From IMG/VR virus record IMGVR_UViG_2548876695_000005, positions 1-22,969 of that record: a DNA stretch of 22,969 bases; one strand, 5' to 3'. The notes beneath the pieces were generated by a model. It was not told the origin of the DNA. It ran no database searches and was given only the letters and a program-made list of their open reading frames with translations. Positions 733 to 22,969 of the stretch are shown one piece after another. Made by a program: the position numbers and the translations under genes. Every line of letters starts with the position of its first letter. Position 1 is the first letter of the stretch. Source of the DNA: a virus (lineage: Duplodnaviria; Heunggongvirae; Uroviricota; Caudoviricetes).

Positions 733-954
733 ATGGACTTAACACAGTGCCCTTCACTCGCCAGCCTGCTCACCCACGGCCAGCAGATCACCCACCGTCA
801 GCATCAACGCGGCTGGATTGAAACCCCGGACGGGCGGTTCTTCCAGCCTAAAGCGGCAGATGTTCAATTTGTTAAAAACTGCCGTGTACCGTTTATGTCG
901 CGCCCGCGTAATAAGCGCCGCTGGTTTTCCCGCTTAATGGGCATCTTTGCGTAG
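733..954 (+). CDS. hypothetical early-operon protein (about 73 aa)
   Basis: ORF track 661..954; preferred start is the ATG at 733 with GGAG 6 nt upstream. First gene of the rightward operon leading to dam and gpA. Function not recognised. Confidence 0.4.
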   Translation: MDLTQCPSLASLLTHGQQITHRQHQRGWIETPDGRFFQPKAADVQFVKNCRVPFMSRPRNKRRWFSRLMGIFA

Positions 955-969
955 TTCGGGGAGGTGGTT

Positions 970-1359
970 ATGTTGATGGATAAGACAGGACAACAGCCAG
1001 GCCGTCGCCAGTTCTTAGAGCAACGGGCTCGACTGCAAGCAAGTTTGAACGTCTCACGCGTGAACGACACTGCAACCCGTTTTAACCGCCTGGATGATGC
1101 CTGTAAAAAGGTGATTTTCATCCTGGCAAACGATGCGTCCAGATACATAGCCGGAATGCCGAAGCTGACCGCCAAACAGCTGGGTTGTACTTACGAAAAT
1201 CTAACCGAAAAGGAGCAAACGTGCCTTTTGATGGGCATTAAGCGCCTTTCCGAATTTGCAGCATCAATGCCGTGGGAATTTGAGGACTACGCCGCACCAC
1301 GCGCCGAAATTCAGGCGATACGCGACAAACCACCCGCGCCAGATAACGCAGTAAATTAA
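970..1359 (+). CDS. hypothetical early-operon protein (about 129 aa)
   Basis: ORF track 964..1359 (GTG); ATG at 970 is preceded by GAGG with 5-nt spacing. Lies between the small early gene and dam. Function not recognised. Confidence 0.5.
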   Translation: MLMDKTGQQPGRRQFLEQRARLQASLNVSRVNDTATRFNRLDDACKKVIFILANDASRYIAGMPKLTAKQLGCTYENLTEKEQTCLLMGIKRLSEFAASMPWEFEDYAAPRAEIQAIRDKPPAPDNAVN

Positions 1360-1429
1360 CAACTAACTACCCACAAAAAAGAAACAGGCGCTAACGCGTC
1401 GGGCTTCTTGCACCCTGGAGAAAGTAAAA

Positions 1430-2320
1430 ATGATTCGATCTCTCGTTAAATGGCCCGGTGGTAAAGGCCGCGTTATGCCTGATTTGCTGCCGATTCTGCC
1501 GAAAGCCGATTGCCTGGTGGAACCGTTTGTCGGCGGTGCTTCTGTTTTCCTCAATACTGAATATCGCCGTTATATCCTGGGTGATATCAACCCAGATTTA
1601 ATTAACCTGTATCGCCAGATAACCCGCTGGCCTGATGCGGTGATCGACGCTGCTCGCCCACTGTTTAAAGTGTACGGCGATAAAGACGGCTATAAGTGGA
1701 TCCGCGATGATTTCAACGCCCGCGCCCGTGACCTACTGTCATTGCGCAGTGTGTTTGAAGATGGGCCGGACGCGGGCAAGATTCTTCGTGCAGCACAATT
1801 TCTTTACCTGAACCGTCACGGATATAACGGCGTAGTACGCTACAACCAACAGGGTGGATATAACGTTCCCTTTGGGCGTCACAAAACCCCGCCTTACTTC
1901 CCGGAAGAACAAATCCGTTTATTCTCTGAAAAAGCTAACGACACGAAAGCTATTTTCGTGTGCTGCGATTTCCAGAGCACGTTAAAAATCATGATTGGTA
2001 GTGACGCGGTTATCTATTGCGATCCGCCATACCTGCCAACAAGCGAAACCGCTAATTTCACCCAATACCACACCGCCCCGTTTGGGATTAAAGAGCATCG
2101 CCAGTTAGCTGCCGCTCTGCTGGATATTAACCGCCTTACTGGTTCGCCGGTGATCCTGTCCAATAGCGACACCCCAGCCACCTGCGAGATTTATCGCTCT
2201 TTCAACTTCCAGGAAATTAGCGTTAACCGTTCTGTCAGCGCGAACGCCATTACCCGAGGGGCCGCCAGTGAGGTGATCGGTATTCTCAAGGTTGCGACTT
2301 CTACGGGCATATGTGAATGA
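1430..2320 (+). CDS. dam: DNA N6-adenine methyltransferase (Dam family)
   Basis: 296 aa. SAM-binding motif EPFVGGASVF near the N-terminus and catalytic DPPY motif (CDPPYLPT). GGAG upstream of the ATG. Stop overlaps the gpA start (ATGA), suggesting translational coupling. Confidence 0.85.
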   Translation: MIRSLVKWPGGKGRVMPDLLPILPKADCLVEPFVGGASVFLNTEYRRYILGDINPDLINLYRQITRWPDAVIDAARPLFKVYGDKDGYKWIRDDFNARARDLLSLRSVFEDGPDAGKILRAAQFLYLNRHGYNGVVRYNQQGGYNVPFGRHKTPPYFPEEQIRLFSEKANDTKAIFVCCDFQSTLKIMIGSDAVIYCDPPYLPTSETANFTQYHTAPFGIKEHRQLAAALLDINRLTGSPVILSNSDTPATCEIYRSFNFQEISVNRSVSANAITRGAASEVIGILKVATSTGICE

Positions 2321-4929
2321 CTAACGCTTTCGCATGGCCTTGGAACGCACCGCGTCCAGCTGTTGGCCCGTACATCTATGAACCGAAAAAAATCGCCCCG
2401 CTTGCTGGGGCGGTGGCGCATCATCCTGCCGTAAAAAAACATATCGATCACATCTTCAAACGTGCCGGTTACAATCCCGCCGAAGTTCGTGACCGTGATG
2501 CGCTCATCCAGGCGCTGGACAGGTACGAACCATGCGGCCTGCCACTGGCCGCCCATCAAAATATAATCCGGCAAGAAATGGAAGCCGCTAAAGCCACGGC
2601 GGCAGCCTGGGCCAATACGCCAGAAGGTGTCGAAGCACGTTTATTATCAGAGCCGTTCTTCATTCGTGAAGTCTGGCGTAAAAAAATTGAGTGGTTACGG
2701 GTCAACCGTGAAACCAGACACACCAATGATTTTCTTATGGGGACAGTGAAAAAATCATTGCTGCGTCTTGATGTTGTGCGCACAAGGCAAGGTGTTTCGC
2801 CTGATATCACCGGCGAACTGGCCGCGTACTGGTTCGGGCGCTGGCAACGGCTGGCTGATTTCACAAAGCGGGAAGCACTAAGCGCCGCTAATGAGATCGC
2901 CAGCCGCATGGCTGAAATGCTGGGGACGGAATGCGAAGCCCTGGGACAGAATGTTTCCGACATGAACGTCGAAGAACTGGACTGGCTTTATTGTCATCTG
3001 GGCCGCGAAATGCTGGCGCTTCGCATTGTGCCGCCTGCATGGTATGCGCCGTGGGAACGTGATCGGATATGTACGGCCATTTTGCGTATGGCTTCGCCTG
3101 ACTGGTGGGGGCGCAAAATCTGGCGCCTGCGTTGTGACTGGCGCGAAAACCAGCTGCGAGCCGTTGGCGCGGTAAATAAAAAAGCGCACGCATACGTTAG
3201 CGCTTCCAGCCTGATCGAGTGGCAGGAACAGCGCCGTAAAAACCGGGATTTTTTCAAAAGTCATGAACTGGTAGACGAAGACGGCAACGTTTCCTCACTT
3301 GAGGACATGATTAATAAATCCACGTCAAACCCGGCTATTCGTCGCCATGAGCTTATGGCCCGAATGGCTGGGGTTGAGCTTGTTGCCCAAAGTCGCGGCG
3401 ATGTTGGCATCTTCCTGACAATCACTTGCCCGTCGAAATATCACAGTAATATTGCATCCGGCCACCATAACGCCAAATGGAATCATTCCACCGTCGCCCA
3501 GGCGCAGTGCTATTTATGCCGTGTGTGGAACCGGGCAACCGCCAAACTGAAACGCGAAGATTTGCGCCCTTATGGCTTCCGTGTCGCCGAGCCGCATCAC
3601 GATGGGACACCACACTGGCACGCGTTGCTGTTTATGCCACAAGAGCAAGTCAAAGCCACGGTTGCGATCCTTCGCACCTACTTCATTGCGGAAGACCGCG
3701 ACGAGCTGGGCCGCAATACCGGCGCTCGTTTCAAGTCAAAAAAAATGGACCCACGGAAAGGGTCAGCAACGGCATACATCGCTAAATACATTTCGAAGAA
3801 TATCGACGGCCACGCGCTGGCCGGTGAACTGGACGACGAAAGCGGCAAGCCGCTGAATGAAAGCGCCAAATATGCAATGGCCTGGGCATCGCTTCACCGT
3901 ATCCGCCAGTTTCAGCCCATCGGACAGCCGCCCATATCGGTTTACCGCGAGCTGCGCAAACTTAGTAATCAGATCACGACCCGACAGAAAATTGACAGTA
4001 CCTTCAAACGTGGTGCGCCATTGCTTGTGGATCCTGCAATGGATGCGGTTTGCGCCGCTGCCGATGTCGGATGCTTTGCTACTTACATCATCCGCCAGGG
4101 TGGTGTTTTGATCCCGCGAGAAAACTATGTCGTCCGTCTGGCCTATCAGCCCGCTGATGAAATGAATGCTTATTGTGAGATCCCCGAAAAGGTTTTCGGG
4201 GTCTGGTCGCCGCGTCTGGGGGATGCCTCCCGTATTTGCACCCGTCTGGTTAAGTGGAAAATTCGAGCCAAATCCAAAACCGTCACTGGGGCCAAAAGCG
4301 GCCCCGGTTTGGGGGTTGACCTTTTGCCGTCGCCAACCGGCGACGCTTGGAGTTCTGTCAATAACTCTACGGAAGACGAAAAAATCACCGATTTTTCGCC
4401 TGGTGTGGAGGGTATTACAGAAGAATCAGAAGAGGAAATCGTCGATTTTGAAAATATGGACCAGCCAACGCGGCGCAAATTGATACGGCGACTACGTGAA
4501 GCACCATTCAAAAGGCGGCACAGCGGATCACCTTATGAACCAGGGAGCGAATTAGATGTTGCCTGGCGTTCTGCCGTGGAAAAAACCGAGGCCAGATCGG
4601 TGGCTGATAAAGCCAGGCGGGCAGCGCTTGCCCCTGCGGTTGCCAGTCTGCTGGCTGATGCGGCGTTGTGTTTGGTTGAGATTTCAGAGATTCAGGCCGT
4701 TTCGCTGTTAATGGGGAGCCGTCTGGAGATTGGCGGGAAATTTTATCAAGCCAGTGCTGGCGGCCAGTTGATAACGCGTCAATTACCTAATGAGTCACGG
4801 ACGGTGAATAAATTATGGGAACATTTACGGGATAACCACGGCATTGATGCCACGCACCTGCGGTTTGATCCGGTCGGGGAATATCAAAAAATGCTGGCGG
4901 GTGCGGAAGGTCGCTACCCTAAAGAATGA
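2317..4929 (+). CDS. A: P2 gpA-type replication initiation endonuclease (rolling-circle initiator)
   Basis: 870 aa. HUH motif (PHWHALLF) and paired active-site tyrosines Y-x3-Y (TAYIAKYISKN), as in P2 gpA-family initiators. Position after dam and before the accessory island fits P2 synteny. Confidence 0.85.
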   Translation: MTNAFAWPWNAPRPAVGPYIYEPKKIAPLAGAVAHHPAVKKHIDHIFKRAGYNPAEVRDRDALIQALDRYEPCGLPLAAHQNIIRQEMEAAKATAAAWANTPEGVEARLLSEPFFIREVWRKKIEWLRVNRETRHTNDFLMGTVKKSLLRLDVVRTRQGVSPDITGELAAYWFGRWQRLADFTKREALSAANEIASRMAEMLGTECEALGQNVSDMNVEELDWLYCHLGREMLALRIVPPAWYAPWERDRICTAILRMASPDWWGRKIWRLRCDWRENQLRAVGAVNKKAHAYVSASSLIEWQEQRRKNRDFFKSHELVDEDGNVSSLEDMINKSTSNPAIRRHELMARMAGVELVAQSRGDVGIFLTITCPSKYHSNIASGHHNAKWNHSTVAQAQCYLCRVWNRATAKLKREDLRPYGFRVAEPHHDGTPHWHALLFMPQEQVKATVAILRTYFIAEDRDELGRNTGARFKSKKMDPRKGSATAYIAKYISKNIDGHALAGELDDESGKPLNESAKYAMAWASLHRIRQFQPIGQPPISVYRELRKLSNQITTRQKIDSTFKRGAPLLVDPAMDAVCAAADVGCFATYIIRQGGVLIPRENYVVRLAYQPADEMNAYCEIPEKVFGVWSPRLGDASRICTRLVKWKIRAKSKTVTGAKSGPGLGVDLLPSPTGDAWSSVNNSTEDEKITDFSPGVEGITEESEEEIVDFENMDQPTRRKLIRRLREAPFKRRHSGSPYEPGSELDVAWRSAVEKTEARSVADKARRAALAPAVASLLADAALCLVEISEIQAVSLLMGSRLEIGGKFYQASAGGQLITRQLPNESRTVNKLWEHLRDNHGIDATHLRFDPVGEYQKMLAGAEGRYPKE

Positions 4930-4933
4930 ATTA

Positions 4934-4977
4934 AATCACGCTATCCGTCGCAGCTGGTTGCGTCGGATAGCGTGATT
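4934..4977 (+). terminator. long hairpin immediately 3' of gpA (14-bp stem, no clean U-tract)
   Basis: AATCACGCTATCCG at 4934-4947 pairs perfectly with CGGATAGCGTGATT at 4964-4977, 5 nt after the gpA stop. No clear U-tract follows, so it may be a processing or regulatory hairpin rather than an intrinsic terminator. Confidence 0.4.
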
Positions 4978-4985
4978 CTGCGGGG

Positions 4986-5012
4986 GCGGGCGGCAAAGAG
5001 CCCGCATTTGAG
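4986..5012 (+). terminator. second GC-rich hairpin followed by ATTTGAGTT (putative intrinsic terminator)
   Basis: GCGGGC at 4986-4991 pairs with GCCCGC at 5000-5005 (8-nt loop), followed by a short T-rich run. Sits at the boundary between GC-rich phage DNA and the AT-rich island. Confidence 0.4.
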
Positions 5013-5293
5013 TTCTGTCAGCGCGATGCCCCTAATCCAATATCTAAATATGCAGTTACGGCATAATGTTAATAGCGGTCATATTCGGTATGCTCCAGTT
5101 AGAAACTACGCTGCGATGTTAAAGATGAGTGATACAAGTGAGTGGGCTAGGCTGTTTGACTCAGCAGAGTAAAGAGGTAATCTTGTTTAAGACAAGTTTC
5201 AAGATAGAATGATTAATGTTATTTGAAGATTTATGTAATACAATATCATTGCAGAGATTTTTAGATAATTGATAAATCATGTTGTCTTATTAA

Positions 5294-8086
5294 ATGTGGG
5301 GTCTGATTTTGGAAAGAAAAATTATTTTTAATAATGGTTTTTTAAGTATAAATAGGGAAGTTATAATTATCTTCTTGATCTACTTTATTCTGGTCGGGTT
5401 GGGTATTTCCGGTGTAATCTACTCTAGATATGTTGATGAAGGGGTAAAGTATTTACTTGTAACACCATCTTTTCTCAATAATTCCCCATTGAATTGGACT
5501 ACTAGTGTTTGGGCGGGAGTTTTAGGCATACATGGAACTATTGCTGCACTATCAATTACATTTATGGGAATGTTTGTTAGTCAGGTTTCTAATTATTCTG
5601 AACATGGCTTTGAAAATATTTGTAAGTCGATGTTGTTGCGGAAAACTAGTTTTTTAAAGTTTAGTTTAAATTCTATTTTTAGTCTTTTAAGTGGTATCGT
5701 ATTGCTTTCATGTGGTGGCGGCATGATTACTTATGCTATATCCATTTTTGTATCGTTATACTTTATTTTTAATTATGGTTCAATGTATCTGAAATTATAT
5801 AATGTTACTGAGAATCCAACTATAATAACTGATCGTTTATTTTTTGAGCTTGATAAGGCTAAAAATGATTATTTATTGATTGACGAACGTAGAAGAACTA
5901 TAGAAAATAAATTTTTAAACATGATTAATGATTTTGAATATATTCATTATGGGTGGGATTCCGATTTTATCAATAAAGGACAACGTAAGTTAAATATTTT
6001 CCAAAATAATCAAAATGTCATTATTAATGATTTTTGTCCAATTTGCTTTAAAGAAATTAACAATGAGCTAGAGCGTTTTTCGAAAGTGGTACGTACTGAT
6101 TTACGCGTGAATCTTAACTTTATATATCCACTATCAACCTCATCGGTTCATATTGAAGTGCAAGATGGAGCGTCGATCGATGAGCTATTAATTAGTAATG
6201 TTACAAAACTATTGAAAAAAGGATTGGTGTTCAGTTCAGCTCCTGAAAGCTTCTTGAATTACGGTAAGTATGAAGATGCAGTAGTTATTAGCTTAAGAAA
6301 TAGTCTTTTTAGTGGTAATGAGTTAGCGTTAGATTTTAGCATAAGAGCTATCTTCACATTAGTTAGTGAAACTGAATTAGTTAAAGTAATACATAACCTC
6401 AATCACTCTTTTGGTTATACTAACAAAAAAAATAATATAGAGTATTCAATTTTTGCTGCTTTTTATATGAAGGTTAGTTCTGAAGTGAGTGGGTATAAAA
6501 ACTATAATATAGTGTGTGATGCTCTTCGATCGATTATGGATTTGGGAAGGTATATTTATGATAATGAGCAATATGATGAATTTTATAAATTGATATCACC
6601 GTCATTGGAACATCGTGCTCAATATAGTTTAGGTGATCCAGAATATCGTTTTTTTGATTTATATATGTCAACGGTGAGAGACAACATCTTGTCAAAGAAT
6701 TATTTGGCATTTAGCCTGAATACTCGATTCTTGACTGAGAAATTTCGTTATCCAGAGTCATCTGATGATGGCGAAACCCTTAGTATCATTGAGAACAAGA
6801 TGGTATCGTGTGTAAGACAGGTTATAACTTTACTGATTATTAGGCTGTGCTATTTATCTGAAAAAAGTGATGGGCATCAGGAGGAATTGAGAATAATAAA
6901 ACAGAATTTAATGAAATGGTTAGCACCTTCATTCCTAGAAGATCTTTTTTATAAGAGTGGCGTGTATGATGTTATATTTACAGTCCCATCTGAACCTGAT
7001 TTTGATGCAAGTAGAACTTTAAGAGATATACCTGATTATGAGGTTGCAACCTTTTCAATAAATAACGATGCTTTCAAAGCAGTATCCCTTTTAATGACTC
7101 AAACATTATTTAATAAAAACAACTTCAATCCTATTTTTATACGTAATAAAAAAGAGTTTATTAAAAATACAAAAATAACAACTCATGAACTGCAATCACT
7201 TATATCATATTTGAAAGGTGATGAATTTTCAGCTTTATTAGAGTTGATTAATGAAGGATCTTCTCAAGAAACAAATCGGATGGAGGTTGCAGAGCATCTT
7301 GAAAGTATAATTTCTGTAAAAAATGAATTAATCGCAAATTCTATTGTTTCTTCTGACCTTGATAAGGTTCTGGTTAATAAATACATAGATAAAGTATCAA
7401 TATCATTAGGTGGGTATTTTAATAAATTCGTAGATATTGATTCTATTCCTGTGTCAAATTCAGTTGTCTGCAATCCATTCTATTCATTGATTAATAAGAG
7501 AGAAGTCTTGCAGTCAATTGATAAAGTGCATTATTCAATGAATAGTTCACATCATGCTGAAGTGTTTGTCTATGCTTGGCTTCATAAAATGCTTGATGGA
7601 ATTAAAGGCCAATATAAAGATGTAAATGAGATCGAAGATGTAAGTGAACTACCTTCCGATAAGCTTATAACAATTCATTACATGGTTAAAGGAGAGGCAA
7701 GTGTTTACCGTTACTCAAAAGGTATGAGAATAACAGATTCAAAAGGAGTTTTGGGTTTGGGGTCTCCTGGTCTTTACTACATGGATTTTTTGAGCGTATT
7801 TTCCTGTCTGCGGAATACTAATTTATTTGATTTGAAAATTGAAAGTATTTCTGATGAGAATATTTCCTTAGTTAAGGGGTTGTATAATTTCAAGGATGAA
7901 AATCCATTGATGTACGCGCTGATGTCTATTAGGATTAATTTGGAATTTATTAATAACGATGGCTTGTCGTTTTATTATATTTCTGTAGATAGTTGTAAAA
8001 AAATCACTGCATTACATGAACAAAAACTTCGTCTATCTTTTAATGATAAAAAACCAATGGATGATATTGGTGAACTTTCAGATTAA
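5294..8086 (+). CDS. large AT-rich hypothetical protein with N-terminal multi-pass membrane domain (candidate anti-phage/abortive-infection effector)
   Basis: 930-aa uninterrupted ORF in a region of very low GC. The ATG at 5294 is directly preceded by an in-frame TAA; no strong SD. Three to four hydrophobic segments within the first ~165 aa (VIIIFLIYFILVGLGISGVIY; VWAGVLGIHGTIAALSITFMGMFV; FSLNSIFSLLSGIVLLSCGGGMITYAISIFVSLYFIF), then a ~770-aa hydrophilic region. I saw no Walker A, HExxH, DPPY or other catalytic signature. Location between gpA and the portal matches the P2 accessory-cargo position. Confidence 0.7.
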   Translation: MWGLILERKIIFNNGFLSINREVIIIFLIYFILVGLGISGVIYSRYVDEGVKYLLVTPSFLNNSPLNWTTSVWAGVLGIHGTIAALSITFMGMFVSQVSNYSEHGFENICKSMLLRKTSFLKFSLNSIFSLLSGIVLLSCGGGMITYAISIFVSLYFIFNYGSMYLKLYNVTENPTIITDRLFFELDKAKNDYLLIDERRRTIENKFLNMINDFEYIHYGWDSDFINKGQRKLNIFQNNQNVIINDFCPICFKEINNELERFSKVVRTDLRVNLNFIYPLSTSSVHIEVQDGASIDELLISNVTKLLKKGLVFSSAPESFLNYGKYEDAVVISLRNSLFSGNELALDFSIRAIFTLVSETELVKVIHNLNHSFGYTNKKNNIEYSIFAAFYMKVSSEVSGYKNYNIVCDALRSIMDLGRYIYDNEQYDEFYKLISPSLEHRAQYSLGDPEYRFFDLYMSTVRDNILSKNYLAFSLNTRFLTEKFRYPESSDDGETLSIIENKMVSCVRQVITLLIIRLCYLSEKSDGHQEELRIIKQNLMKWLAPSFLEDLFYKSGVYDVIFTVPSEPDFDASRTLRDIPDYEVATFSINNDAFKAVSLLMTQTLFNKNNFNPIFIRNKKEFIKNTKITTHELQSLISYLKGDEFSALLELINEGSSQETNRMEVAEHLESIISVKNELIANSIVSSDLDKVLVNKYIDKVSISLGGYFNKFVDIDSIPVSNSVVCNPFYSLINKREVLQSIDKVHYSMNSSHHAEVFVYAWLHKMLDGIKGQYKDVNEIEDVSELPSDKLITIHYMVKGEASVYRYSKGMRITDSKGVLGLGSPGLYYMDFLSVFSCLRNTNLFDLKIESISDENISLVKGLYNFKDENPLMYALMSIRINLEFINNDGLSFYYISVDSCKKITALHEQKLRLSFNDKKPMDDIGELSD

Positions 8087-8240
8087 ATGTAATGTATCAT
8101 TGTAGAGATTTATTCTTACAGTGTTTGAACGCGTTTATTCACTAAGGATTGTTTCTATGTTGTTTATATAGGATATTGATAGTGCGTAAAAGTATGATTT
8201 TATAATGTGTAGGCAATGGGCTGGATAGGGCAATCCTTTA

Positions 8241-8277
8241 CTTATTTGAAAACCGCCGCAATTTGAATGTGCGGCGG
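8241..8277 (-). terminator. intrinsic terminator for the leftward P-Q-zinc finger operon
   Basis: Perfect 8-bp inverted repeat CCGCCGCA (8253-8260) and TGCGGCGG (8270-8277) with a 9-nt loop. On the minus strand the stem is followed by TTTTCAAATAAG. Lies ~70 nt downstream of the minus-strand ORF ending at 8349. Confidence 0.5.
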
Positions 8278-8348
8278 AGGGATGTAATGTACATTAGGTG
8301 TTCAAAGGATTGATGCTTGCGCCGTACATCTATGTGTAGCAGTGGGAT

Positions 8349-8675
8349 TTATGTAGTTTGCCCACTGAGCAGGTCCAGCGCGAATTGACGTTCTTCCGGC
8401 TTGAGCCGGTCAATCAGGAATTTAACCAGCTTGTTGCCGGTCAGCCCGCTGGGGCTGAGGGTATGTGAAAACTCAACGCTATAAACAAATGTATGACCAC
8501 ATTCCACTTCTGTGCAGCCACAGTATAAAGACGCCAGTTTTTTATCTTTCCAGTCAGATTTGCGAATGATGGCCGGTGAGCCGCATTCAGGACATTTAAT
8601 TTTAAAAACTCGCATGTTCACCATCCCGCACGCCATTGCTAATAATGGGGGGGATTTTAACTTAACTGCGCTCAT
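8349..8675 (-). CDS. Ogr/Delta-family zinc-finger protein (putative late-gene transcriptional activator)
   Basis: Contains C-x2-C-x22-C-x4-C (CPEC...22 aa...CTEVEC), the spacing of the P2 Ogr / P4 Delta zinc finger, followed by HTFVYSVEF resembling the Ogr region after the fourth Cys. The ATG at 8675 overlaps the portal stop; an internal ATG at 8615 (MRVFKIKCPEC) is an alternative start giving ~88 aa. Confidence 0.55.
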   Translation of the reverse strand: MSAVKLKSPPLLAMACGMVNMRVFKIKCPECGSPAIIRKSDWKDKKLASLYCGCTEVECGHTFVYSVEFSHTLSPSGLTGNKLVKFLIDRLKPEERQFALDLLSGQTT

Positions 8676-17034: not shown

Positions 17035-19125
17035 ATGTGGGTAACAGCAAAAGAATGTGTTGGTCTTCCTGATTTACCAATGATGGAACATAACATTCGC
17101 CATCGACTCACAAAAGCAGCTGCGGGAAATGCAGCCATGTTACGCAAACGTAAGGGGACAAAAGCAATCGAATTTAATATCGATTGTTTGCCTTCTGGCG
17201 CGCAACAAGTATTGCGTGAACGTTATGCCCTTCAACTGATGACGCAAAAAGCTGATGAATCACCGGCTCCGGTGGTGACAAAGGCCAGACGCTCGCCTGC
17301 CGTGGTTGATGCGGTGGAGGCATATCGCGGATCACCACAACTGATGGTCGAACGCCTTAATGCCCTGACTGAAAACCAGCGCCAGGTGGCTGATGCACGA
17401 ATCGCGATCGTCAGCGAAGTTCTGAAAGTCGCGCAACAACCTGGTTTCAGCTGTGCGAAGGCTATCCGGTTTATCGTTGACAACCTGGCACGTTCGCAGC
17501 TGGACGAGCGCATTGTGGCAATGGTTGAGACGGCGAACGCCAAAAAGGGAAACAGCCGCGCGTTAAGTGAAATCACGCTGAAACGCTGGATTGCGGCCTT
17601 TAACAAGGCGCAGAACGCCGCTGAACGCCTGCTTTTACTGGCACCGGGTAAGCGCCAGGAAATAAAAGCCGAAGATATTAACTGGCTGCCCGAATTTCTG
17701 GCGCAGTATCGCCAGTCAAACGGCCGACCAATGACCGAGGCTTACGAGGATTTTGTCGCTGAATGGCAGCACCGGCACGCTGATGAGCCTTATATGCTCG
17801 ATATCATGCCGTCTTATGACACCATTCGCCGCGCAATGAAGAAACTGCCGGAAGTGGTGAAACAAAAAGGCCGGGTGACCGGCAGTGAATACCGCCAGCT
17901 TGAGGGATTCACGCGCCGCGACTGGTCCAGAATGCCGGTGAATTATGTCTGGATTGGTGACGGTCACGGCATGAAGCTGAAATGCGCACACCCGGTTCAC
18001 GGTCGGCCATTTGCACCGGAAGTGACCTTTGTTATCGACGGTGGCACGCGCTTTGTGGTGGGCTGGAGCCTTGACCTGGCTGAAAATGTTTTCGCCGTAG
18101 CCGGTGCCATACAGCACGGCATTCGCCATCACGGCAAACCGTTTCTGTATTACTCGGATAACGGCTCCGGGGAAACCGCCGACATCCTGGATAAGGAGGT
18201 TGTGGGGATACTGCCGCGACTGGGGATTAATCACCCGACCGGGATTGCCGGTAATCCGCAGGGACGAGGCATTATCGAACGGCTTAACCGCACATTACCG
18301 ATGCGCATAGCCCGTAAATACCGCACCTATTTCGGGAAAGGTGCAGATCGCGAGACGTTACGCAAAACCAACCGCGATTTACGCTCGGCATTTACTGCCC
18401 TGCAACAGGGCAAACGGCTGAACGCCCGGCAGCAGTCAGCGATGCGTGATTTACCGTCCTGGTCTGAACTGATTGATGCCATTCGTGACGGTGTTGAGTG
18501 GTACAACAACCGGCCGCACGATGAATTACCGATGAAGCCGAACGGTAAACATTACAGCCCGGCGGAGTTCAGAAAAAAACGCCTGGCGGAAGAGGACACG
18601 GAAATTGAATGGCTGTCCGATGTTGAGCTGCGGGATATGTTCCGGCCGATGGTGGAACGCCCTGTAAGACGCTGTGAAATACGCTGGCTGAATAATATTT
18701 ACTACGCGCCCGAGCTGCGTGACGAGCATGGTCGTAAGGTGCTTATCAGCTATGACATTCATGATGCCGAACGAATTACCGTGCGTCGCCTGGATGGCAG
18801 CGTGATTTGCGAGGCGGTATGGGACGGCAATAAACGCGAAGCCTTCCCGGTCAGCGCGGAATACTACAAACAGCAGCAGCGCCTTAAAGGTATGCGTAAA
18901 CGCGCAGAGGAAAAAATCCGTGATGCCGAGGATGAGGTTGTCAACGTGCTGGAGCACAAGCCGCAGGAGCCCTGGCTGGAAAACATCTACCGCCCGGTGG
19001 GTAATACGGTGGCCGTTCAGCAACCTGCCGTTGATGATGAACCTGATGAAGAATACGAGCGTAATTTCCAGCGGGGATTGCAGTTGCTGGAAGCGAAATT
19101 AAAAGAAAATGACCCGCTGGCCTGA
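17035..19125 (+). CDS. A: DDE transposase (MuA-like)
   Basis: 696 aa. N-terminus resembles MuA (MELWVSPKECANLPGLP). Candidate DDE residues in WIGDGHG, YYSDNGSGE and GRGIIERLN. Position after ner. Confidence 0.9.
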   Translation: MWVTAKECVGLPDLPMMEHNIRHRLTKAAAGNAAMLRKRKGTKAIEFNIDCLPSGAQQVLRERYALQLMTQKADESPAPVVTKARRSPAVVDAVEAYRGSPQLMVERLNALTENQRQVADARIAIVSEVLKVAQQPGFSCAKAIRFIVDNLARSQLDERIVAMVETANAKKGNSRALSEITLKRWIAAFNKAQNAAERLLLLAPGKRQEIKAEDINWLPEFLAQYRQSNGRPMTEAYEDFVAEWQHRHADEPYMLDIMPSYDTIRRAMKKLPEVVKQKGRVTGSEYRQLEGFTRRDWSRMPVNYVWIGDGHGMKLKCAHPVHGRPFAPEVTFVIDGGTRFVVGWSLDLAENVFAVAGAIQHGIRHHGKPFLYYSDNGSGETADILDKEVVGILPRLGINHPTGIAGNPQGRGIIERLNRTLPMRIARKYRTYFGKGADRETLRKTNRDLRSAFTALQQGKRLNARQQSAMRDLPSWSELIDAIRDGVEWYNNRPHDELPMKPNGKHYSPAEFRKKRLAEEDTEIEWLSDVELRDMFRPMVERPVRRCEIRWLNNIYYAPELRDEHGRKVLISYDIHDAERITVRRLDGSVICEAVWDGNKREAFPVSAEYYKQQQRLKGMRKRAEEKIRDAEDEVVNVLEHKPQEPWLENIYRPVGNTVAVQQPAVDDEPDEEYERNFQRGLQLLEAKLKENDPLA

Positions 19126-19134
19126 AATAAAAAA

Positions 19135-19166
19135 ATAACCCGAGCGGCGACTCAGGTTATTTGATT
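19135..19166 (+). terminator. hairpin plus T-rich tract between transposase A and B (possible attenuator)
   Basis: ATAACCCGAG (19135-19144) pairs with CTCAGGTTAT (19151-19160) with one mismatch and a 6-nt loop, followed by TTGATT. Lies 10 nt after the A stop and ~30 nt before the B start. Confidence 0.3.
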
Positions 19167-19196
19167 AAACAAGGTATCAAATGAGAGGTTAATAAT

Positions 19197-20129
19197 ATGA
19201 CTGATATTAACGATGTAATCAAGACCATTGATGAACTTATTGATGGCGGCGTACTGACGCAGTATGCCATCGCCAGAGAGGCGGGAATTTCCGACGGCAC
19301 ATTATCGGCTTTCCGTAAGGGAAAATATAAAGGCGATAACGCTGCTGTGGCTGCTTCCCTGCGTTCCTGGTATGAGAACTGGAATAAACAAAGCGCACTG
19401 CCGGAACCGCCGCAGTTTGTGGAAACGCAGACAGTCCAGGAGCTGCGCGCACTGTTTCAGGCGGTTCGTCTGATGGGCTGTATTAACGTTATTGTGGGCG
19501 TACCGGGTGTGGGTAAAACGGCCACTGCCCGTAATTACTGCCAGGAGCAACCAAACACCTGGATGATCACCCTGTCACCCGCGCACTCCAGCGTCACGGA
19601 GTGTCTGCTGGAGCTGGCCGATGCGCTGGGGATTGATTACACCCGCGCGAACAAAGGGGCATTATCCCGCGCCATCCGCCGTCGCCTGATGGGAACGCGT
19701 GGACTGGTGATTGTGGATGAGGCGGATCATCTTGGTATTGACGGTCTGGAGCAACTCCGGGCAATTCAGGACGCCACGGGGATCGGGATGGTGCTTATTG
19801 GTAACCCGCGCGGATTGTTTAAAGGTGGACGCCGCACCTTTGATGATTTATCGCGCCTGTTCAGCCGTCTTGCCCGTACAAAACAACTTCGCAAGGCCAA
19901 AAAGGCGGATGTGCTGGCCATTGCCAGGGCGTGGGGGATCAGTGGTGAGGCCGAGCTGGCCGTCATGCAGGCTATCGCTGAAAAGCCGGGAGCGTTACGC
20001 GTTCTGACACATACGCTTAACCAGGCGTGGCTCACCGCCAGCGGTGAAGGCGCGGCGCTGACAGAAAAACATATTAATGCGGCCTTTAAAGAGGTTTATA
20101 CCAACCCTGAATTACTCTCACAGGTGTGA
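19197..20129 (+). CDS. B: transposition ATPase / target-DNA activator (MuB-like)
   Basis: 310 aa. Strong resemblance to Mu B: LPEPPQFVETQTV, Walker A GVPGVGKT, Walker B-like LVIVDEADHLG, KPGALRVL. GAGG 8 nt upstream of the ATG. Confidence 0.9.
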   Translation: MTDINDVIKTIDELIDGGVLTQYAIAREAGISDGTLSAFRKGKYKGDNAAVAASLRSWYENWNKQSALPEPPQFVETQTVQELRALFQAVRLMGCINVIVGVPGVGKTATARNYCQEQPNTWMITLSPAHSSVTECLLELADALGIDYTRANKGALSRAIRRRLMGTRGLVIVDEADHLGIDGLEQLRAIQDATGIGMVLIGNPRGLFKGGRRTFDDLSRLFSRLARTKQLRKAKKADVLAIARAWGISGEAELAVMQAIAEKPGALRVLTHTLNQAWLTASGEGAALTEKHINAAFKEVYTNPELLSQV

Positions 20130-20131
20130 TT

Positions 20132-20353
20132 ATGGCGGTATTTAATATTCCTGATATTTACGGACGCTTTTACCTGGTTAATTTCGATAACGTGAAGGTG
20201 ATTTCACTGGCCGAAAATAAAGAATGTGGCGATTTACTTTTTGAATTTAATGACCGCACACGAATGGTGATATCTGCCGGACTTGATCGAGAAGGTGCGA
20301 CAGACGTTTACAGCGGAATATGCCGTTCTGTTGGTGCGAAACAAGTCAGCTAA
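20132..20353 (+). CDS. hypothetical small early protein (73 aa)
   Basis: ATG at 20132 with AGGTG 5 nt upstream, 2 nt after the B stop (track lists a GTG at 20126). Function unknown. Confidence 0.5.
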   Translation: MAVFNIPDIYGRFYLVNFDNVKVISLAENKECGDLLFEFNDRTRMVISAGLDREGATDVYSGICRSVGAKQVS

Positions 20354-20365
20354 ATGAGGTGTTAT

Positions 20366-20620
20366 ATGAATATGCAATCCTGCGGTAACAAAATGAATTT
20401 ATTCGACTCCCTGAACAGCGCGCGCCGTCTGACCGAACTTGCCGGTGCGGTACTGGAACGCAGTAAGCGCTATCCGCAACGTTTTGCACTGAAAACCACG
20501 CCGCCGGTAGGCAACGTGCAGGGAACCGGTGAAATTGAAATCACCATACAGACCAACGGCCTGCGCCGCCGTGTGAAGGCCACCCGCATCAGCGGCTGCA
20601 CGGTTTACTGGGAGGTGTGA
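20366..20620 (+). CDS. hypothetical small early protein (84 aa)
   Basis: Preferred ATG at 20366 (GAGGTG 4 nt upstream); the ATG at 20354 is an alternative. Tightly packed with neighbours. Confidence 0.5.
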   Translation: MNMQSCGNKMNLFDSLNSARRLTELAGAVLERSKRYPQRFALKTTPPVGNVQGTGEIEITIQTNGLRRRVKATRISGCTVYWEV

Positions 20621-20621
20621 G

Positions 20622-20903
20622 GTGAAAAAAAATCTCATTGCATGGGCGTGGTCGAGTGGTCTTATTGAGTTTGGTTACGTCCTGCCGGAAGGTGCATTGC
20701 CGATAGTTGCCGGAAAGCCTGCCACGGTACGGCATGTGATTGAGGTTATGGCGCGTCATGGACGTGATGAACAGGAGCAGTTGCTGGTTCCGGGGATACC
20801 GGAAGCGGTGACGGAGGAAGAAGCCTTTAATGCCATGATTCGGTTCTGCCGTGAGGTCAGACGCCGGGTCAGTTATCCAAACAGAACGAGGACCAGAGGA
20901 TGA
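20622..20903 (+). CDS. hypothetical small early protein (93 aa, GTG start)
   Basis: GTG at 20622 preceded by GGAGGTG; begins 1 nt after the previous stop and overlaps the next start (ATGA). Confidence 0.5.
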   Translation: MKKNLIAWAWSSGLIEFGYVLPEGALPIVAGKPATVRHVIEVMARHGRDEQEQLLVPGIPEAVTEEEAFNAMIRFCREVRRRVSYPNRTRTRG

Positions 20904-21172
20904 GTAAAGTCGTACGCATTATTTTCGAATACAAGGAGCACGTTATCCATAAAAACGCTGATGGAACAGTGCGCATGGGGGTAAGTCTGGACATACGTTC
21001 AACCGGGATAAAGCAGAAAGGTGATGGACCCGCCATGATTTTTGGGGTGGTTATGCTCGCGGAAAGCAGAGACTTTGCTGAACTTGTGGCAATGAAAGCC
21101 AGTGCGCTCATGAAAGATATGAGCATGCGTTCCGGGGTTATTAAAGGTAATGAATTTAATCAGCAGGGGTAA
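20900..21172 (+). CDS. hypothetical small early protein (90 aa), paralogue of the next gene
   Basis: ATG at 20900 preceded by AGAGGA. N-terminus MSKVVRIIFEYKEHV is similar to the N-terminus of the downstream ORF. Confidence 0.55.
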   Translation: MSKVVRIIFEYKEHVIHKNADGTVRMGVSLDIRSTGIKQKGDGPAMIFGVVMLAESRDFAELVAMKASALMKDMSMRSGVIKGNEFNQQG

Positions 21173-21176
21173 TTCC

Positions 21177-21470
21177 ATGAGCAAAGTACGCGTTATTTTT
21201 GAATTTAAGCATGTTTCGCATGACGAAAAACCGGCAGGCAATGACTGTGTTGAAGTGCATGAAAAGATTGGTGTGGATGTAAAAACAGAACGTGATACGA
21301 ATAACAGGCCGACGTCACTCTGTGACGTTTATGCAAGTATTCTCCAGTATCACAGTCCTGAAATTATTCAGTTTCTCTCAGCGGAATTTCAGGCATCTGT
21401 ACAGGCTTTTGGGGCGGATGCCATCATTAAACGCCACCGCGTGCATAAAGCATCAGGCACACTGCAATAA
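21177..21470 (+). CDS. hypothetical small early protein (97 aa), paralogue of the preceding gene
   Basis: ATG at 21177 with AGGGG 7 nt upstream (track start 21150 is upstream in frame). N-terminus MSKVRVIFEFKHV is similar to the preceding gene at protein and DNA level. Confidence 0.55.
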   Translation: MSKVRVIFEFKHVSHDEKPAGNDCVEVHEKIGVDVKTERDTNNRPTSLCDVYASILQYHSPEIIQFLSAEFQASVQAFGADAIIKRHRVHKASGTLQ

Positions 21471-21481
21471 GGAAAAACAAA

Positions 21482-22012
21482 ATGGCAAAACGCGTTACAA
21501 AATTAAAGGCCGCAGCAGAGGCGGCACCGCAGACCCGTGAAGAGGTCAGCCGCGATATCCGCACCCTGGGCGATATTCAGCGAGAGGCGCTGCGCCTGGA
21601 AACAGCGATGAATGATGAAGTGGCAGAAATCACCGCCCGTTATACGCCGCAGATTGAAAACCTTAAAAAAGAAATCAAAGTGCTTTTTAAGGGGATTCAG
21701 GACTGGTGCAAAACCAACCGTGATGAGCTGACGAACGGCGGCAAAACCAAAACTGCCAATCTGACCACCGGAACGGTGTCATGGCGACTGGGGAATCCAT
21801 CATGCAGCGTCAGTCGTGATGTGGAAGGTGTGATTGAAATGCTGCGCCGTATGGGGCTTGAGCGATTCATCCGCACGAAAGAGGAAGTGAACAAGGAAGC
21901 GGTCCTGGCGGAGCCGGATGCGGTGAAAGGGATTGCCGGTATTAAGGTGAATAAAGGCGCTGAAAGTTTTTATGTCGAGCCTTTTGAACAGGACGCCGGA
22001 CTGAATAAATAA
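21482..22012 (+). CDS. gam: host-nuclease inhibitor Gam (Mu Gam-like DNA end-binding protein)
   Basis: 176 aa. Strong resemblance to Mu Gam along its length (MAK...RLETEMNDAIAEIT; ANRDELTNGGK.KTANL; RFIRTK.EINKEA; PFEQEAG). AAGGA 8 nt upstream. Confidence 0.85.
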   Translation: MAKRVTKLKAAAEAAPQTREEVSRDIRTLGDIQREALRLETAMNDEVAEITARYTPQIENLKKEIKVLFKGIQDWCKTNRDELTNGGKTKTANLTTGTVSWRLGNPSCSVSRDVEGVIEMLRRMGLERFIRTKEEVNKEAVLAEPDAVKGIAGIKVNKGAESFYVEPFEQDAGLNK

Positions 22013-22109
22013 CACCGCATTAATCAATTAAATATCACTTCGTTTTAATTATGGCGCTCGCGTCAGGGGACTGCCTGCGCCTGTAAACTGAAAATAAGGA
22101 ACAGGATAT

Positions 22110-22652
22110 ATGGCATATTTTTATTTCAAATTAGACCGTGTGCAGACAAATAAATATTTCACCAAATATCAACAGACTGTTTTACCGCTACGCAACAGTA
22201 TTCTTCGGGCATTACTGAAAAATACAGGCGCTGCCGGATTGCGCTTAAAGCCGTTTGCCATGGACGTAATCAGTGAGTTTTATTTTTCTGGTGCTCTGCC
22301 TGCGGGCTGGCGTAAGCGCGATGATGTGGCTTTTATCGGGGACGGACCGTGCTTTATTGCCAGACCTGATGAGTCATGCCCTGAAGGACCGGCGATTGCC
22401 GCAATGATTGAAGCCGCTGAACGCGAGTTAAGAAAGCGTCCTGATTTCCTTGTCTGGCTCTGTGAAAAGCTGGGGGTAATGAGAATCCCCTCCATGTTTA
22501 ACATGGACTCCTGGTGGACCCCGTCGCTCTCCCGTGATGCCCTGTGCGTGGTGTTTAAAGTAGGCGCTTATGGCAGGGAAATAAAAGGGGGTATTCCTGA
22601 AGAATGCCAGGAGATTAAACATTCTGAATATGTGGCGCTGACGGAGGAATAA
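22110..22652 (+). CDS. hypothetical early protein (180 aa)
   Basis: ATG at 22110 with AGGA upstream. Function not recognised. Confidence 0.5.
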   Translation: MAYFYFKLDRVQTNKYFTKYQQTVLPLRNSILRALLKNTGAAGLRLKPFAMDVISEFYFSGALPAGWRKRDDVAFIGDGPCFIARPDESCPEGPAIAAMIEAAERELRKRPDFLVWLCEKLGVMRIPSMFNMDSWWTPSLSRDALCVVFKVGAYGREIKGGIPEECQEIKHSEYVALTEE

Positions 22653-22655
22653 TTC

Positions 22656-22901
22656 ATGATTGATGCAAAAGTGCTTGAAGGGGTTAAAAACTGGCTGAGT
22701 ATTTACGGGCGTCTGACCTGCGGCATTCTGGCTGAAAAAATGAATATGCCGCCATCCTCGATGGTTTATTTTCTGCGTGATGCGGTCGATGCCGGGGTGC
22801 TGACGGAATGTAACGGTTTTTATGATATTCCGCGTCCCCGCCCGGTGCAGCCGGTTCGTCGCAAATGCAGCCAGGAAGGTGCGGCTGATGATGTTCAGTG
22901 A
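22656..22901 (+). CDS. hypothetical early protein (81 aa)
   Basis: ATG at 22656 with GGAGG 8 nt upstream, 3 nt after the previous stop. Function not recognised. Confidence 0.5.
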   Translation: MIDAKVLEGVKNWLSIYGRLTCGILAEKMNMPPSSMVYFLRDAVDAGVLTECNGFYDIPRPRPVQPVRRKCSQEGAADDVQ

Positions 22902-22952
22902 ACCGCCCCGGGAATCCTGGAGACTAAACTCCCTGAGAAAGAGGTAAACAGG

Positions 22953-22969
22953 ATGACTAAAAATACACG
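22953..22969 (+). CDS. partial CDS (5' end only), hypothetical
   Basis: ATG at 22953 with GAGG 8 nt upstream; the ORF runs off the window end. Confidence 0.3.

Follow-up and report, generated by a model that had tools for sequence, protein, structure and literature searches.

An AT-rich cassette in the P2 cargo hotspot of an Escherichia coli prophage encodes an orphan four-helix membrane protein with a possible anti-phage role

The cargo hotspots of P2-like and P4-like elements have been the source of several new defence systems, including PARIS. In phage P2 itself the cargo is old, which encodes an ATPase-TOPRIM nuclease, and tin, whose product is a soluble protein. Phage lambda carries RexAB, in which a cytoplasmic sensor, RexA, is paired with RexB, a channel with four transmembrane (TM) helices. 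P2 cargo genes classically exclude other phages, and the interval between the replication gene gpA and the portal gene Q was described by Rousset et al. 2022 (PMC9122126) as a defence-rich hotspot with 169 curated systems. According to that paper, the systems validated from the P2 hotspot are DUF4238, a three-gene system of hypothetical proteins and DprA-PRTase, and its Table S2 of cloned systems names among the tested P2 candidates old-tin-orf91, a phosphatase with kinases, a putative HEPN protein, a peptidase with a TM protein, a hydrolase with SMC, an RM-like system and an exonuclease with HipA. Here, we describe the cargo of this slot in a P2-like prophage of E. coli that belongs to an Irrigatiovirus-like lineage and is contained in a viral sequence of 22,969 nucleotides (IMG/VR record IMGVR_UViG_2548876695_000005, positions 1 to 22,969; the whole stretch is called the window below). 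The cargo is a single gene for a 930-residue membrane protein. Like P2 old/tin (orf91), it is an accessory prophage cargo placed between gpA and the genes for packaging, but it has no sequence or domain relation to them, being a four-TM protein without an NTPase motif.

The cargo gene lies in a region of strikingly low guanine-plus-cytosine (GC) content. GC is 0.53-0.54 up to ~5000, drops to 0.26-0.35 over 5001-8200 and is at least 0.47 from 8201 on; the gene itself has 0.308 versus 0.518 in the remaining window. An initial annotation, made from the sequence of the window, had delimited an AT-rich interval (~5030-8240) with one open reading frame (ORF) for 930 amino acids (aa), and both the GC profile and the ORF, the sole long one of the interval, agree with this. 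It had also placed the island between gpA and the portal gene. On the left gpA is indeed the neighbour, but on the right it is ogr, and portal Q comes only after ogr. The position as such, that of the P2 old/tin cargo in the gpA-Q hotspot, is borne out by homologues in the same slot of other elements (see below) and by alternative cargo in the nearest isolated phages, Salmonella SI7, SW5 and SW3 (Peduoviridae, genus Irrigatiovirus). These are 93% identical to the window in gpA and 99% in portal, terminase and scaffold; in the annotation of SW5 this position is taken by a 66-aa ORF together with a DNA methylase. Homology to SW5 spans the gpA stop and both hairpins behind it, stops at ~5009 and returns at ~8347, at the ogr stop codon. 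The swapped cassette is therefore ~5010-8347, somewhat wider than the GC trough. Its features, with the left border, are as follows.

4934-5009, plus strand: two stem-loops right after the gpA stop (4929); phage backbone, outside the cargo
~5010-8347: swapped cassette, based on loss and return of SW5 homology in pairwise alignments
5047-5172, plus strand: donor gpA relic, the last ~37 codons and the stop, encoding NMQLRHNVNSGHIRYAPVRNYAAMLKMSDTSEWARLF and then a stop
5173-5293, plus strand: AT-rich non-coding leader, presumed site of the gene's own promoter, with a repeat copy at 5244-5260
5294-8086, plus strand: cargo ORF, 930 aa, ATG start
5333-5812, plus strand: four-helix TM domain, aa 14-173 (hydropathy, AlphaFold2 helices)
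5819-6238, plus strand: long juxtamembrane helix (aa 176-211) and small alpha/beta domain (aa 217-315)
6245-7423, plus strand: all-helical alpha-solenoid region, aa 318-710 (AlphaFold2)
7427-8041, plus strand: C-terminal alpha/beta domain, aa 712-916, bearing K735-R736-E737 and D743-x-V-H
8253-8277, minus strand: right hairpin with an 8-bp GC stem, within the cassette, followed on the minus strand by TTTTCAAAT

RefSeq lets the protein begin at a TTG at 5309 and lists it as 'hypothetical protein' (WP_000439987.1).

The cassette bears a trace of its origin. The segment 5047-5172, which falls in a 66-aa ORF (4972-5172), is clearly homologous to the gpA of canonical P2-like E. coli prophages (L026 and L027 among the loci collected here), in which the nearest paralogues of the cargo gene reside. 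Aligned with the C-terminal end of the L027 gpA, it reaches a Smith-Waterman score of 126, whereas shuffles gave 24.7 +/- 4.2 and 0/500 came up to this value; the C-terminus of the resident gpA is far less similar to the relic (score 50). Judged from these alignments, 5047-5172 is a recombination scar, the cassette having come together with the 3' end of the donor gpA from a canonical P2-like phage. That this donor end lies within the cassette suggests that cassettes are swapped by recombination close to, or at, the 3' end of gpA. The relic was first noticed via a 93-aa ORF upstream of the homologue in a Citrobacter locus. This ORF is a C-terminal fragment of gpA, and the seemingly 'chromosomal' Citrobacter locus is thus a decayed P2-like prophage. 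The relic gives a concrete view of how a cassette moves among distant P2-like phages.

The drop in base composition had been taken for a textbook horizontally acquired insertion. This holds insofar as the region is a swapped cassette with a donor relic, but not as a sign of recency. All family members examined (L002-L027) have a GC content of 0.285-0.327, hosts or flanks have 0.47-0.56, and this is true for members down to 25% identity. A GC content of ~30% across the whole family makes low GC a lasting family trait and not a sign of recent arrival, which suggests that AT-richness is maintained, for example via silencing by H-NS or via a codon usage of mobile cargo.

The same annotation had seen the ORF insulated by hairpins on both sides. 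Inverted repeats and folding agree that hairpins are present, but neither side is specific to the ORF. The first left stem-loop has 19-nt arms (4934-4977); the second has a GC stem (4986-5005) followed by a short T-containing tail and resembles a terminator. Together they fold with a dG of -46 kcal/mol (z -5.8), and they are kept in SW5 up to ~5009, as backbone directly past gpA. The T-run past the right hairpin reads ..GCGGCGGUUUUCAAAU on the minus strand, and the hairpin is therefore oriented as a terminator of ogr and not of the cargo ORF; SW5 has another, different hairpin at this place. An imperfect 17-nt direct repeat, TATCATTG(C/T)AGAGATTT, also flanks the cargo ORF, with copies at 5244-5260 and 8095-8111, 34 nt ahead of the ATG and 9 nt past the stop codon. 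The similarity extends to ~5234-5264 and ~8087-8114, both copies are preceded by ATGTAAT, and none of the window shuffles yielded two matches of the motif. As a cassette boundary the repeat was rejected: the motif is absent at homologous loci, and near-repeats occur inside the AT-rich coding region.

The protein itself consists of a membrane domain and a large soluble part. Kyte-Doolittle hydropathy and an AlphaFold2 model agree on four N-terminal TM helices (~14-46, 68-99, 120-139, 144-173), where three to four had been annotated, and the distribution of Lys and Arg suggests an N-in/C-in topology with the remaining ~757 residues predicted to be cytoplasmic. A signal peptide or secreted domain was not found in the protein. 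AlphaFold2, with an alignment of 49 family sequences as input, gave a confident model (mean predicted local distance difference test score, pLDDT, 85.2; predicted template-modelling score, pTM, 0.66), in which the membrane domain is followed by the juxtamembrane helix, the small alpha/beta domain, the solenoid and the C-terminal domain listed above, the last with its alpha/beta fold at aa 729-916. The soluble part had been described as free of catalytic motifs and, indeed, Walker A, HExxH and [DNS]PP[YFW] motifs were not found; HKD, DEAD and GxSxG motifs were likewise missing. An architecture of a membrane anchor plus a large domain of no recognised family, as first proposed, thus takes the form of a four-TM anchor and a soluble part without a known family.

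Conservation is concentrated in the membrane. The most conserved stretch of the protein is TM2 (aa 68-99, WTTSVWAGVLGIHGTIAALSITFMGMF), with a mean top-residue frequency of 0.87 versus 0.42-0.57 elsewhere and with H80, G81, T82, S87 and T89 invariant, and TM2-TM4, including invariant H, T, S and G residues, form the conserved core. TM1, the juxtamembrane helix and the alpha/beta domain at aa 217-315 are least conserved. In the cytoplasmic part E327, R517, E531 and K735-R736-E737 are invariant and D743 and D815 nearly so; altogether the family alignment has 43 invariant columns.

The family is small and rare. A first search gave 53 clusters, all of ~900-940 aa and none with a Pfam domain; clusters with a named source were all from Enterobacterales (E. 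coli, Citrobacter, Morganella, Cedecea, Enterobacter, Klebsiella, Rahnella, Cronobacter and Serratia). An exhaustive search with a hidden Markov model found 46 matches at E <= 1e-3 among 1.84 billion representative proteins, almost all of them from Enterobacterales, with full-length homologues down to 25% identity, and a second, broadened profile search brought no further relatives. Members are encoded in 3 of 185,579 species-representative genomes, and 19 of 5,426 complete E. coli genomes have the gene, all in one phage lineage; the carrier strains include several serotypes of Shiga toxin-producing E. coli (STEC), namely O45:H2, O103:H2 and O111. No match was obtained by tblastn against INPHARED phages and PLSDB plasmids.

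The statement that the protein has no recognisable domain stood up to searches of Pfam, NCBIfam, PADLOC and PDB sequences. Pfam, run on the cargo protein and 49 members singly, gave only sub-threshold noise (ABC_C, E 0.004) and a stray iSTAND match in 1/49 members; NCBIfam gave no match for the cargo protein, and PDB sequences, searched with a profile, yielded no match with E < 1. In PHROGs just two families of 'unknown function' were hit, both made of the same protein.

The gene had been catalogued before. In row 27 of Table S5B in Rousset et al. (PMC9122126), a single protein entry contains two query fragments chosen from the N-terminal ~95 residues, and this entry is identical to the ORF of the window from the N-terminus (MWGLILERKIIF...) over the ~400 residues compared. 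The row, 'System #27', counts 131 occurrences in P2 hotspots of E. coli, lists no Pfam domain and remarks '3 TM', where we find four TM helices; it is a catalogue entry, without a structure, a family survey or a mechanism. The existence of the cargo gene is therefore already on record, and it is one of hundreds of similar candidate genes in such hotspots. As prophage hotspot cargo with a TM module it appears to be of a well-known kind; its parts are new. A mention of WP_000439987, or a characterisation of the protein, was not found in the literature searched, including the later hotspot papers checked.

Where the homologues are found is informative. Homologues of 25-58% identity occupy the gpA-portal slot of at least 17 divergent P2-like elements, comprising elements of Klebsiella, Enterobacter, Serratia, Rahnella and E. 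coli, eleven IMG/VR viral contigs and two more species genomes. The gpA proteins of these elements are merely 33-54% identical to that of the window and the gene is nevertheless in the same slot, which means that it has moved among very divergent P2-like phages. The gene is usually the sole cargo in the slot. It is intact in several decayed remnants that have lost the structural genes (Serratia L003-L005 and L031; L032; Citrobacter L002), a retention better explained by a gain for the host than by a function in the lytic cycle of the phage.

Copies also exist outside P2 elements. In Morganella the gene adjoins icd and an integrase remnant; in Pantoea allii it has an integrase fragment on one side and an IS3 element on the other, with a gene for an AAA_15/AAA_21 ATPase ~3 kb away. 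Just one distant sister with a known context could be detected. This protein, P0086, is a singleton in the searches and comes from a metagenome-assembled genome of Ca. Thiodiazotropha, a clam symbiont. It has 941 aa and similar N-terminal hydrophobic segments and aligns to the family with an hhalign probability of 93.7% over the region with the KR...DGVH motif. Its gene lies 98 bp past hsdR of a type I restriction-modification (R-M) operon (hsdM, hsdM, hsdS, hsdR) and next to a phage-type integrase, in a region that spans 785-13407 of locus L029. Taken together, these contexts, as read from gene neighbourhoods, support an accessory, mobile and host-beneficial role and would fit defence.

Some loci hold additional genes in the slot. 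In Rahnella (L030, 4381-5150) genes of the TumE and MarR families precede the homologue, and several cargo modules are stacked. An ORF of 182-183 aa with a zinc ribbon (..CRKCGNELHYKEK..C..CKG..) follows gpA and precedes the homologue by 10-85 nt in L026 (7365-7916) and in L027 and L028 (7443-7991). It was rejected as a partner gene, being absent from the window and most loci and resembling independent system #107 in the tables of Rousset et al. Canonical P2-like loci also have a short, conserved, coding-like stretch 100-350 nt past the homologue and before the portal gene (L006, 11139-11294; L008, 9912-10067; L018, L019, L020, L021, L024 and L026; L027, 10798-11001, a 67-aa ORF). The window lacks it and has ogr in that place; it is probably backbone near Q or cos and not a partner gene.

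How does the protein compare with other known systems? In lambda RexAB a sensor and a four-helix membrane protein are separate, and the logic proposed here would be analogous, with both fused in one chain; Kiwa KwaA and the 'RexA + 4TM' and 'HP + 4TMs' systems of P4 hotspots may follow a like logic with their four-TM partners. From such systems the cargo differs in being a single gene with a soluble part three times larger, and hhalign of the TM-domain profile against RexB-like, KwaA and 4TM proteins (from Table S2 of Rousset et al.) gave probabilities of 0.1-0.8%. The alpha-solenoid matches generic HEAT/ARM-like and designed-repeat folds and nothing more specific. Such scaffolds serve target recognition in many immune sensors, and the likeness is generic to the fold. 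A P-loop NTPase ahead of the solenoid, as in sensors of the STAND (signal transduction ATPases with numerous domains) or NLR (nucleotide-binding, leucine-rich repeat) type, was not found (no Walker A, no NTPase Pfam).

We propose that the hotspot cassette, acquired from a canonical P2-like phage through recombination, codes for a single orphan protein of the inner membrane, and that this protein would most likely serve as a single-gene anti-phage determinant, by exclusion or abortive infection. The cytoplasmic part, that is the variable alpha/beta domain, the ~400-aa alpha-solenoid and the C-terminal alpha/beta domain, would detect a cue of infection; the very strongly conserved, polar-lined bundle of four TM helices would then act on the membrane as an ion-conducting or permeabilising assembly, probably after oligomerisation, and this membrane action would stop phage production by the infected cell. 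The logic would be that of RexAB, with sensor and membrane module in one polypeptide. Taken as a whole, a single-gene, membrane-acting anti-phage cargo with cytoplasmic sensing is a serious candidate, if a little short of probable. Its parts differ in weight. We lean towards an anti-phage role, whereas the sequence of cytoplasmic sensing and a membrane effector step is a tentative and rather doubtful element. In favour of the reading as a whole are the location in a defence-rich hotspot, the cargo swap and the occurrence in the same slot elsewhere, the retention in decayed remnants, the independent contexts (R-M, integrase), the rare and patchy distribution, the conserved TM2-TM4 core and the lack of an enzymatic motif or domain in the soluble part.

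Several observations weigh against this proposal. In all 19 E. coli genomes of this phage lineage the cargo is the same, with no variation within the lineage. PADLOC-DB v2.0.0, including its PDC candidates, gave 0 families at E <= 1, and the fold search gave no match that points to a sensor or a pore. A scan of 5010-5293 for sigma-70 consensus promoters passed nothing. The N-terminal sequence of System #27 is not in Table S2 of Rousset et al., which lists the cloned systems, and according to the same paper the P2 hotspot also bears cargo other than defence, namely partition systems in about a quarter of the loci and cytolethal distending toxin (PMC9122126). The division of roles could also be the opposite: the TM domain would sense or anchor, and the effector would be the cytosolic part.

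Some of these points speak directly for a cargo without a defence function, a factor for host fitness, envelope stress, competition or lysogenic conversion that merely rides in the hotspot. Partition systems and toxins share this place, several carriers belong to the STEC serotypes mentioned, and no defence model matched. The hosts, however, have no common niche (E. coli, Klebsiella, Serratia, the plant-associated Pantoea, Rahnella and a clam symbiont), the sister gene adjoins a type I R-M operon, and a protein with no signal peptide or secreted domain and with its bulk predicted in the cytoplasm is not what such a factor would lead one to expect; we regard this explanation as unlikely. Similarly unlikely, in our view, is an exclusion of superinfecting phages without killing, in which the four-TM domain would sit at, or sense, the site of injection in the inner membrane and the cytoplasmic part would block, bind or sequester incoming DNA or ejected proteins. 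It is consistent with a prophage-encoded protein that is predicted to be anchored in the inner membrane, with a TM bundle as conserved core and with the classical exclusion by P2 cargo, and injection-stage, membrane-anchored defences exist, for example a membrane-bound nuclease (PMC13190303). A nuclease or DNA-binding domain, however, was not detected in the protein or the 49 members. Classical superinfection exclusion proteins are, moreover, small, and the observations made here fit abortive infection equally well.

The C-terminal domain gave rise to a further thought. In the fold search aa 712-930 aligned over 130-145 residues with many HK97-fold proteins, such as capsid proteins and encapsulins, but these are weak matches of a predicted model. 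No capsid Pfam family was matched by any of the 49 members, and hhalign of each cargo domain against P2 major capsid proteins was negative, with a probability of 0.2% against the P2 gpN alignment; the resemblance is a lead only, with no supporting sequence signal. A capsid-related function could be that of a decoy for invading phages or P4-type satellites, co-assembling with their major capsid proteins or sensing them, or that of an accessory morphogenetic protein of the phage itself; we consider it improbable. Nor did we find a confident match to a virion or lysis protein, apart from these weak ones, and the gene is absent from SW5, SI7 and SW3 and thus not conserved across the phage group as a virion or lysis gene would be. 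It is tempting to speculate, if equally improbable, that an HK97-fold capsid domain was recruited and fused via the solenoid to a four-TM pore module, giving a membrane-tethered capsid mimic. Contact with a capsid or scaffold that is being assembled, from an invading phage or a P4-type satellite, would then lead to permeabilisation of the membrane. If true, this would be defence by 'structural mimicry of the virion shell'; we know of no described precedent for sensing of this kind. Finally, the ORF might be decaying or non-functional, a chance frame in AT-rich DNA. The promoter scan and the Mu-like insertion that interrupts the prophage of the window (see below) could be quoted for this, but an open frame of 2.8 kb is very unlikely to arise by chance in DNA of 31% GC, and full-length homologues down to 25% identity, the invariant columns and a confident model (pLDDT 85) speak against it, so that this explanation is effectively refuted by conservation.

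The prophage around the cassette has the gene order of a P2-like phage.

From the left: fil, then dam (1430-2320) and gpA, followed by the AT-rich cargo interval
2317-4929: gpA, replication gene
8349-8675 (RefSeq 8349-8624), minus strand: ogr/Delta-like zinc-finger late activator, the right-hand backbone boundary
8672-9733, minus strand: portal Q, next gene beyond ogr
9730-11541, minus strand: terminase P, right of portal Q
Up to 15583: scaffold O, capsid N, small terminase M, gpL and gpR, the head and tail genes beyond terminase P

The P2 cos 19-mer had no match in a search that allowed up to 3 mismatches. The early region has another low-GC patch at 1-600 (GC 0.39-0.43) with a minus-strand ORF for 175 aa (115-642) without a Pfam match; in strain FWSEC0003 an IS3 element adjoins its counterpart.

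At 15610-22969, 26 nt past the gpR stop (15583), the P2-like prophage is interrupted by a Mu-like transposable prophage, which makes the window a mosaic of nested prophages. The following genes of the Mu-like prophage were assigned.

15965-16663, minus strand: Mu c repressor
16758-17024: Ner
17035-19125: MuA
19197-20129: MuB
21482-22012: Gam

Homology with the intact prophage of NZ_CP031916 stops at ~15609, and an extension leftward over the Mu junction was seen in none of the best 8 of 262 matching E. coli genomes. The P2-like prophage of the window is probably defective. The possibility that an AT-rich dip at 15.6-16.8 kb marks a second cargo island was rejected, since the dip corresponds to the immunity region of the inserted Mu-like prophage.

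The cargo gene ranks 27th in abundance among the catalogued systems of the P2 hotspot, and no defence-finder model used here detects it. Should the protein turn out not to protect, it would be a reminder that location in a hotspot does not prove defence. If it is protective, it would be a new single-gene system made of parts without known relatives, a highly conserved four-TM module, a solenoid and an unusual C-terminal domain, and would offer a simple model for the control of a membrane effector by a cytoplasmic sensor that belongs to the same polypeptide.

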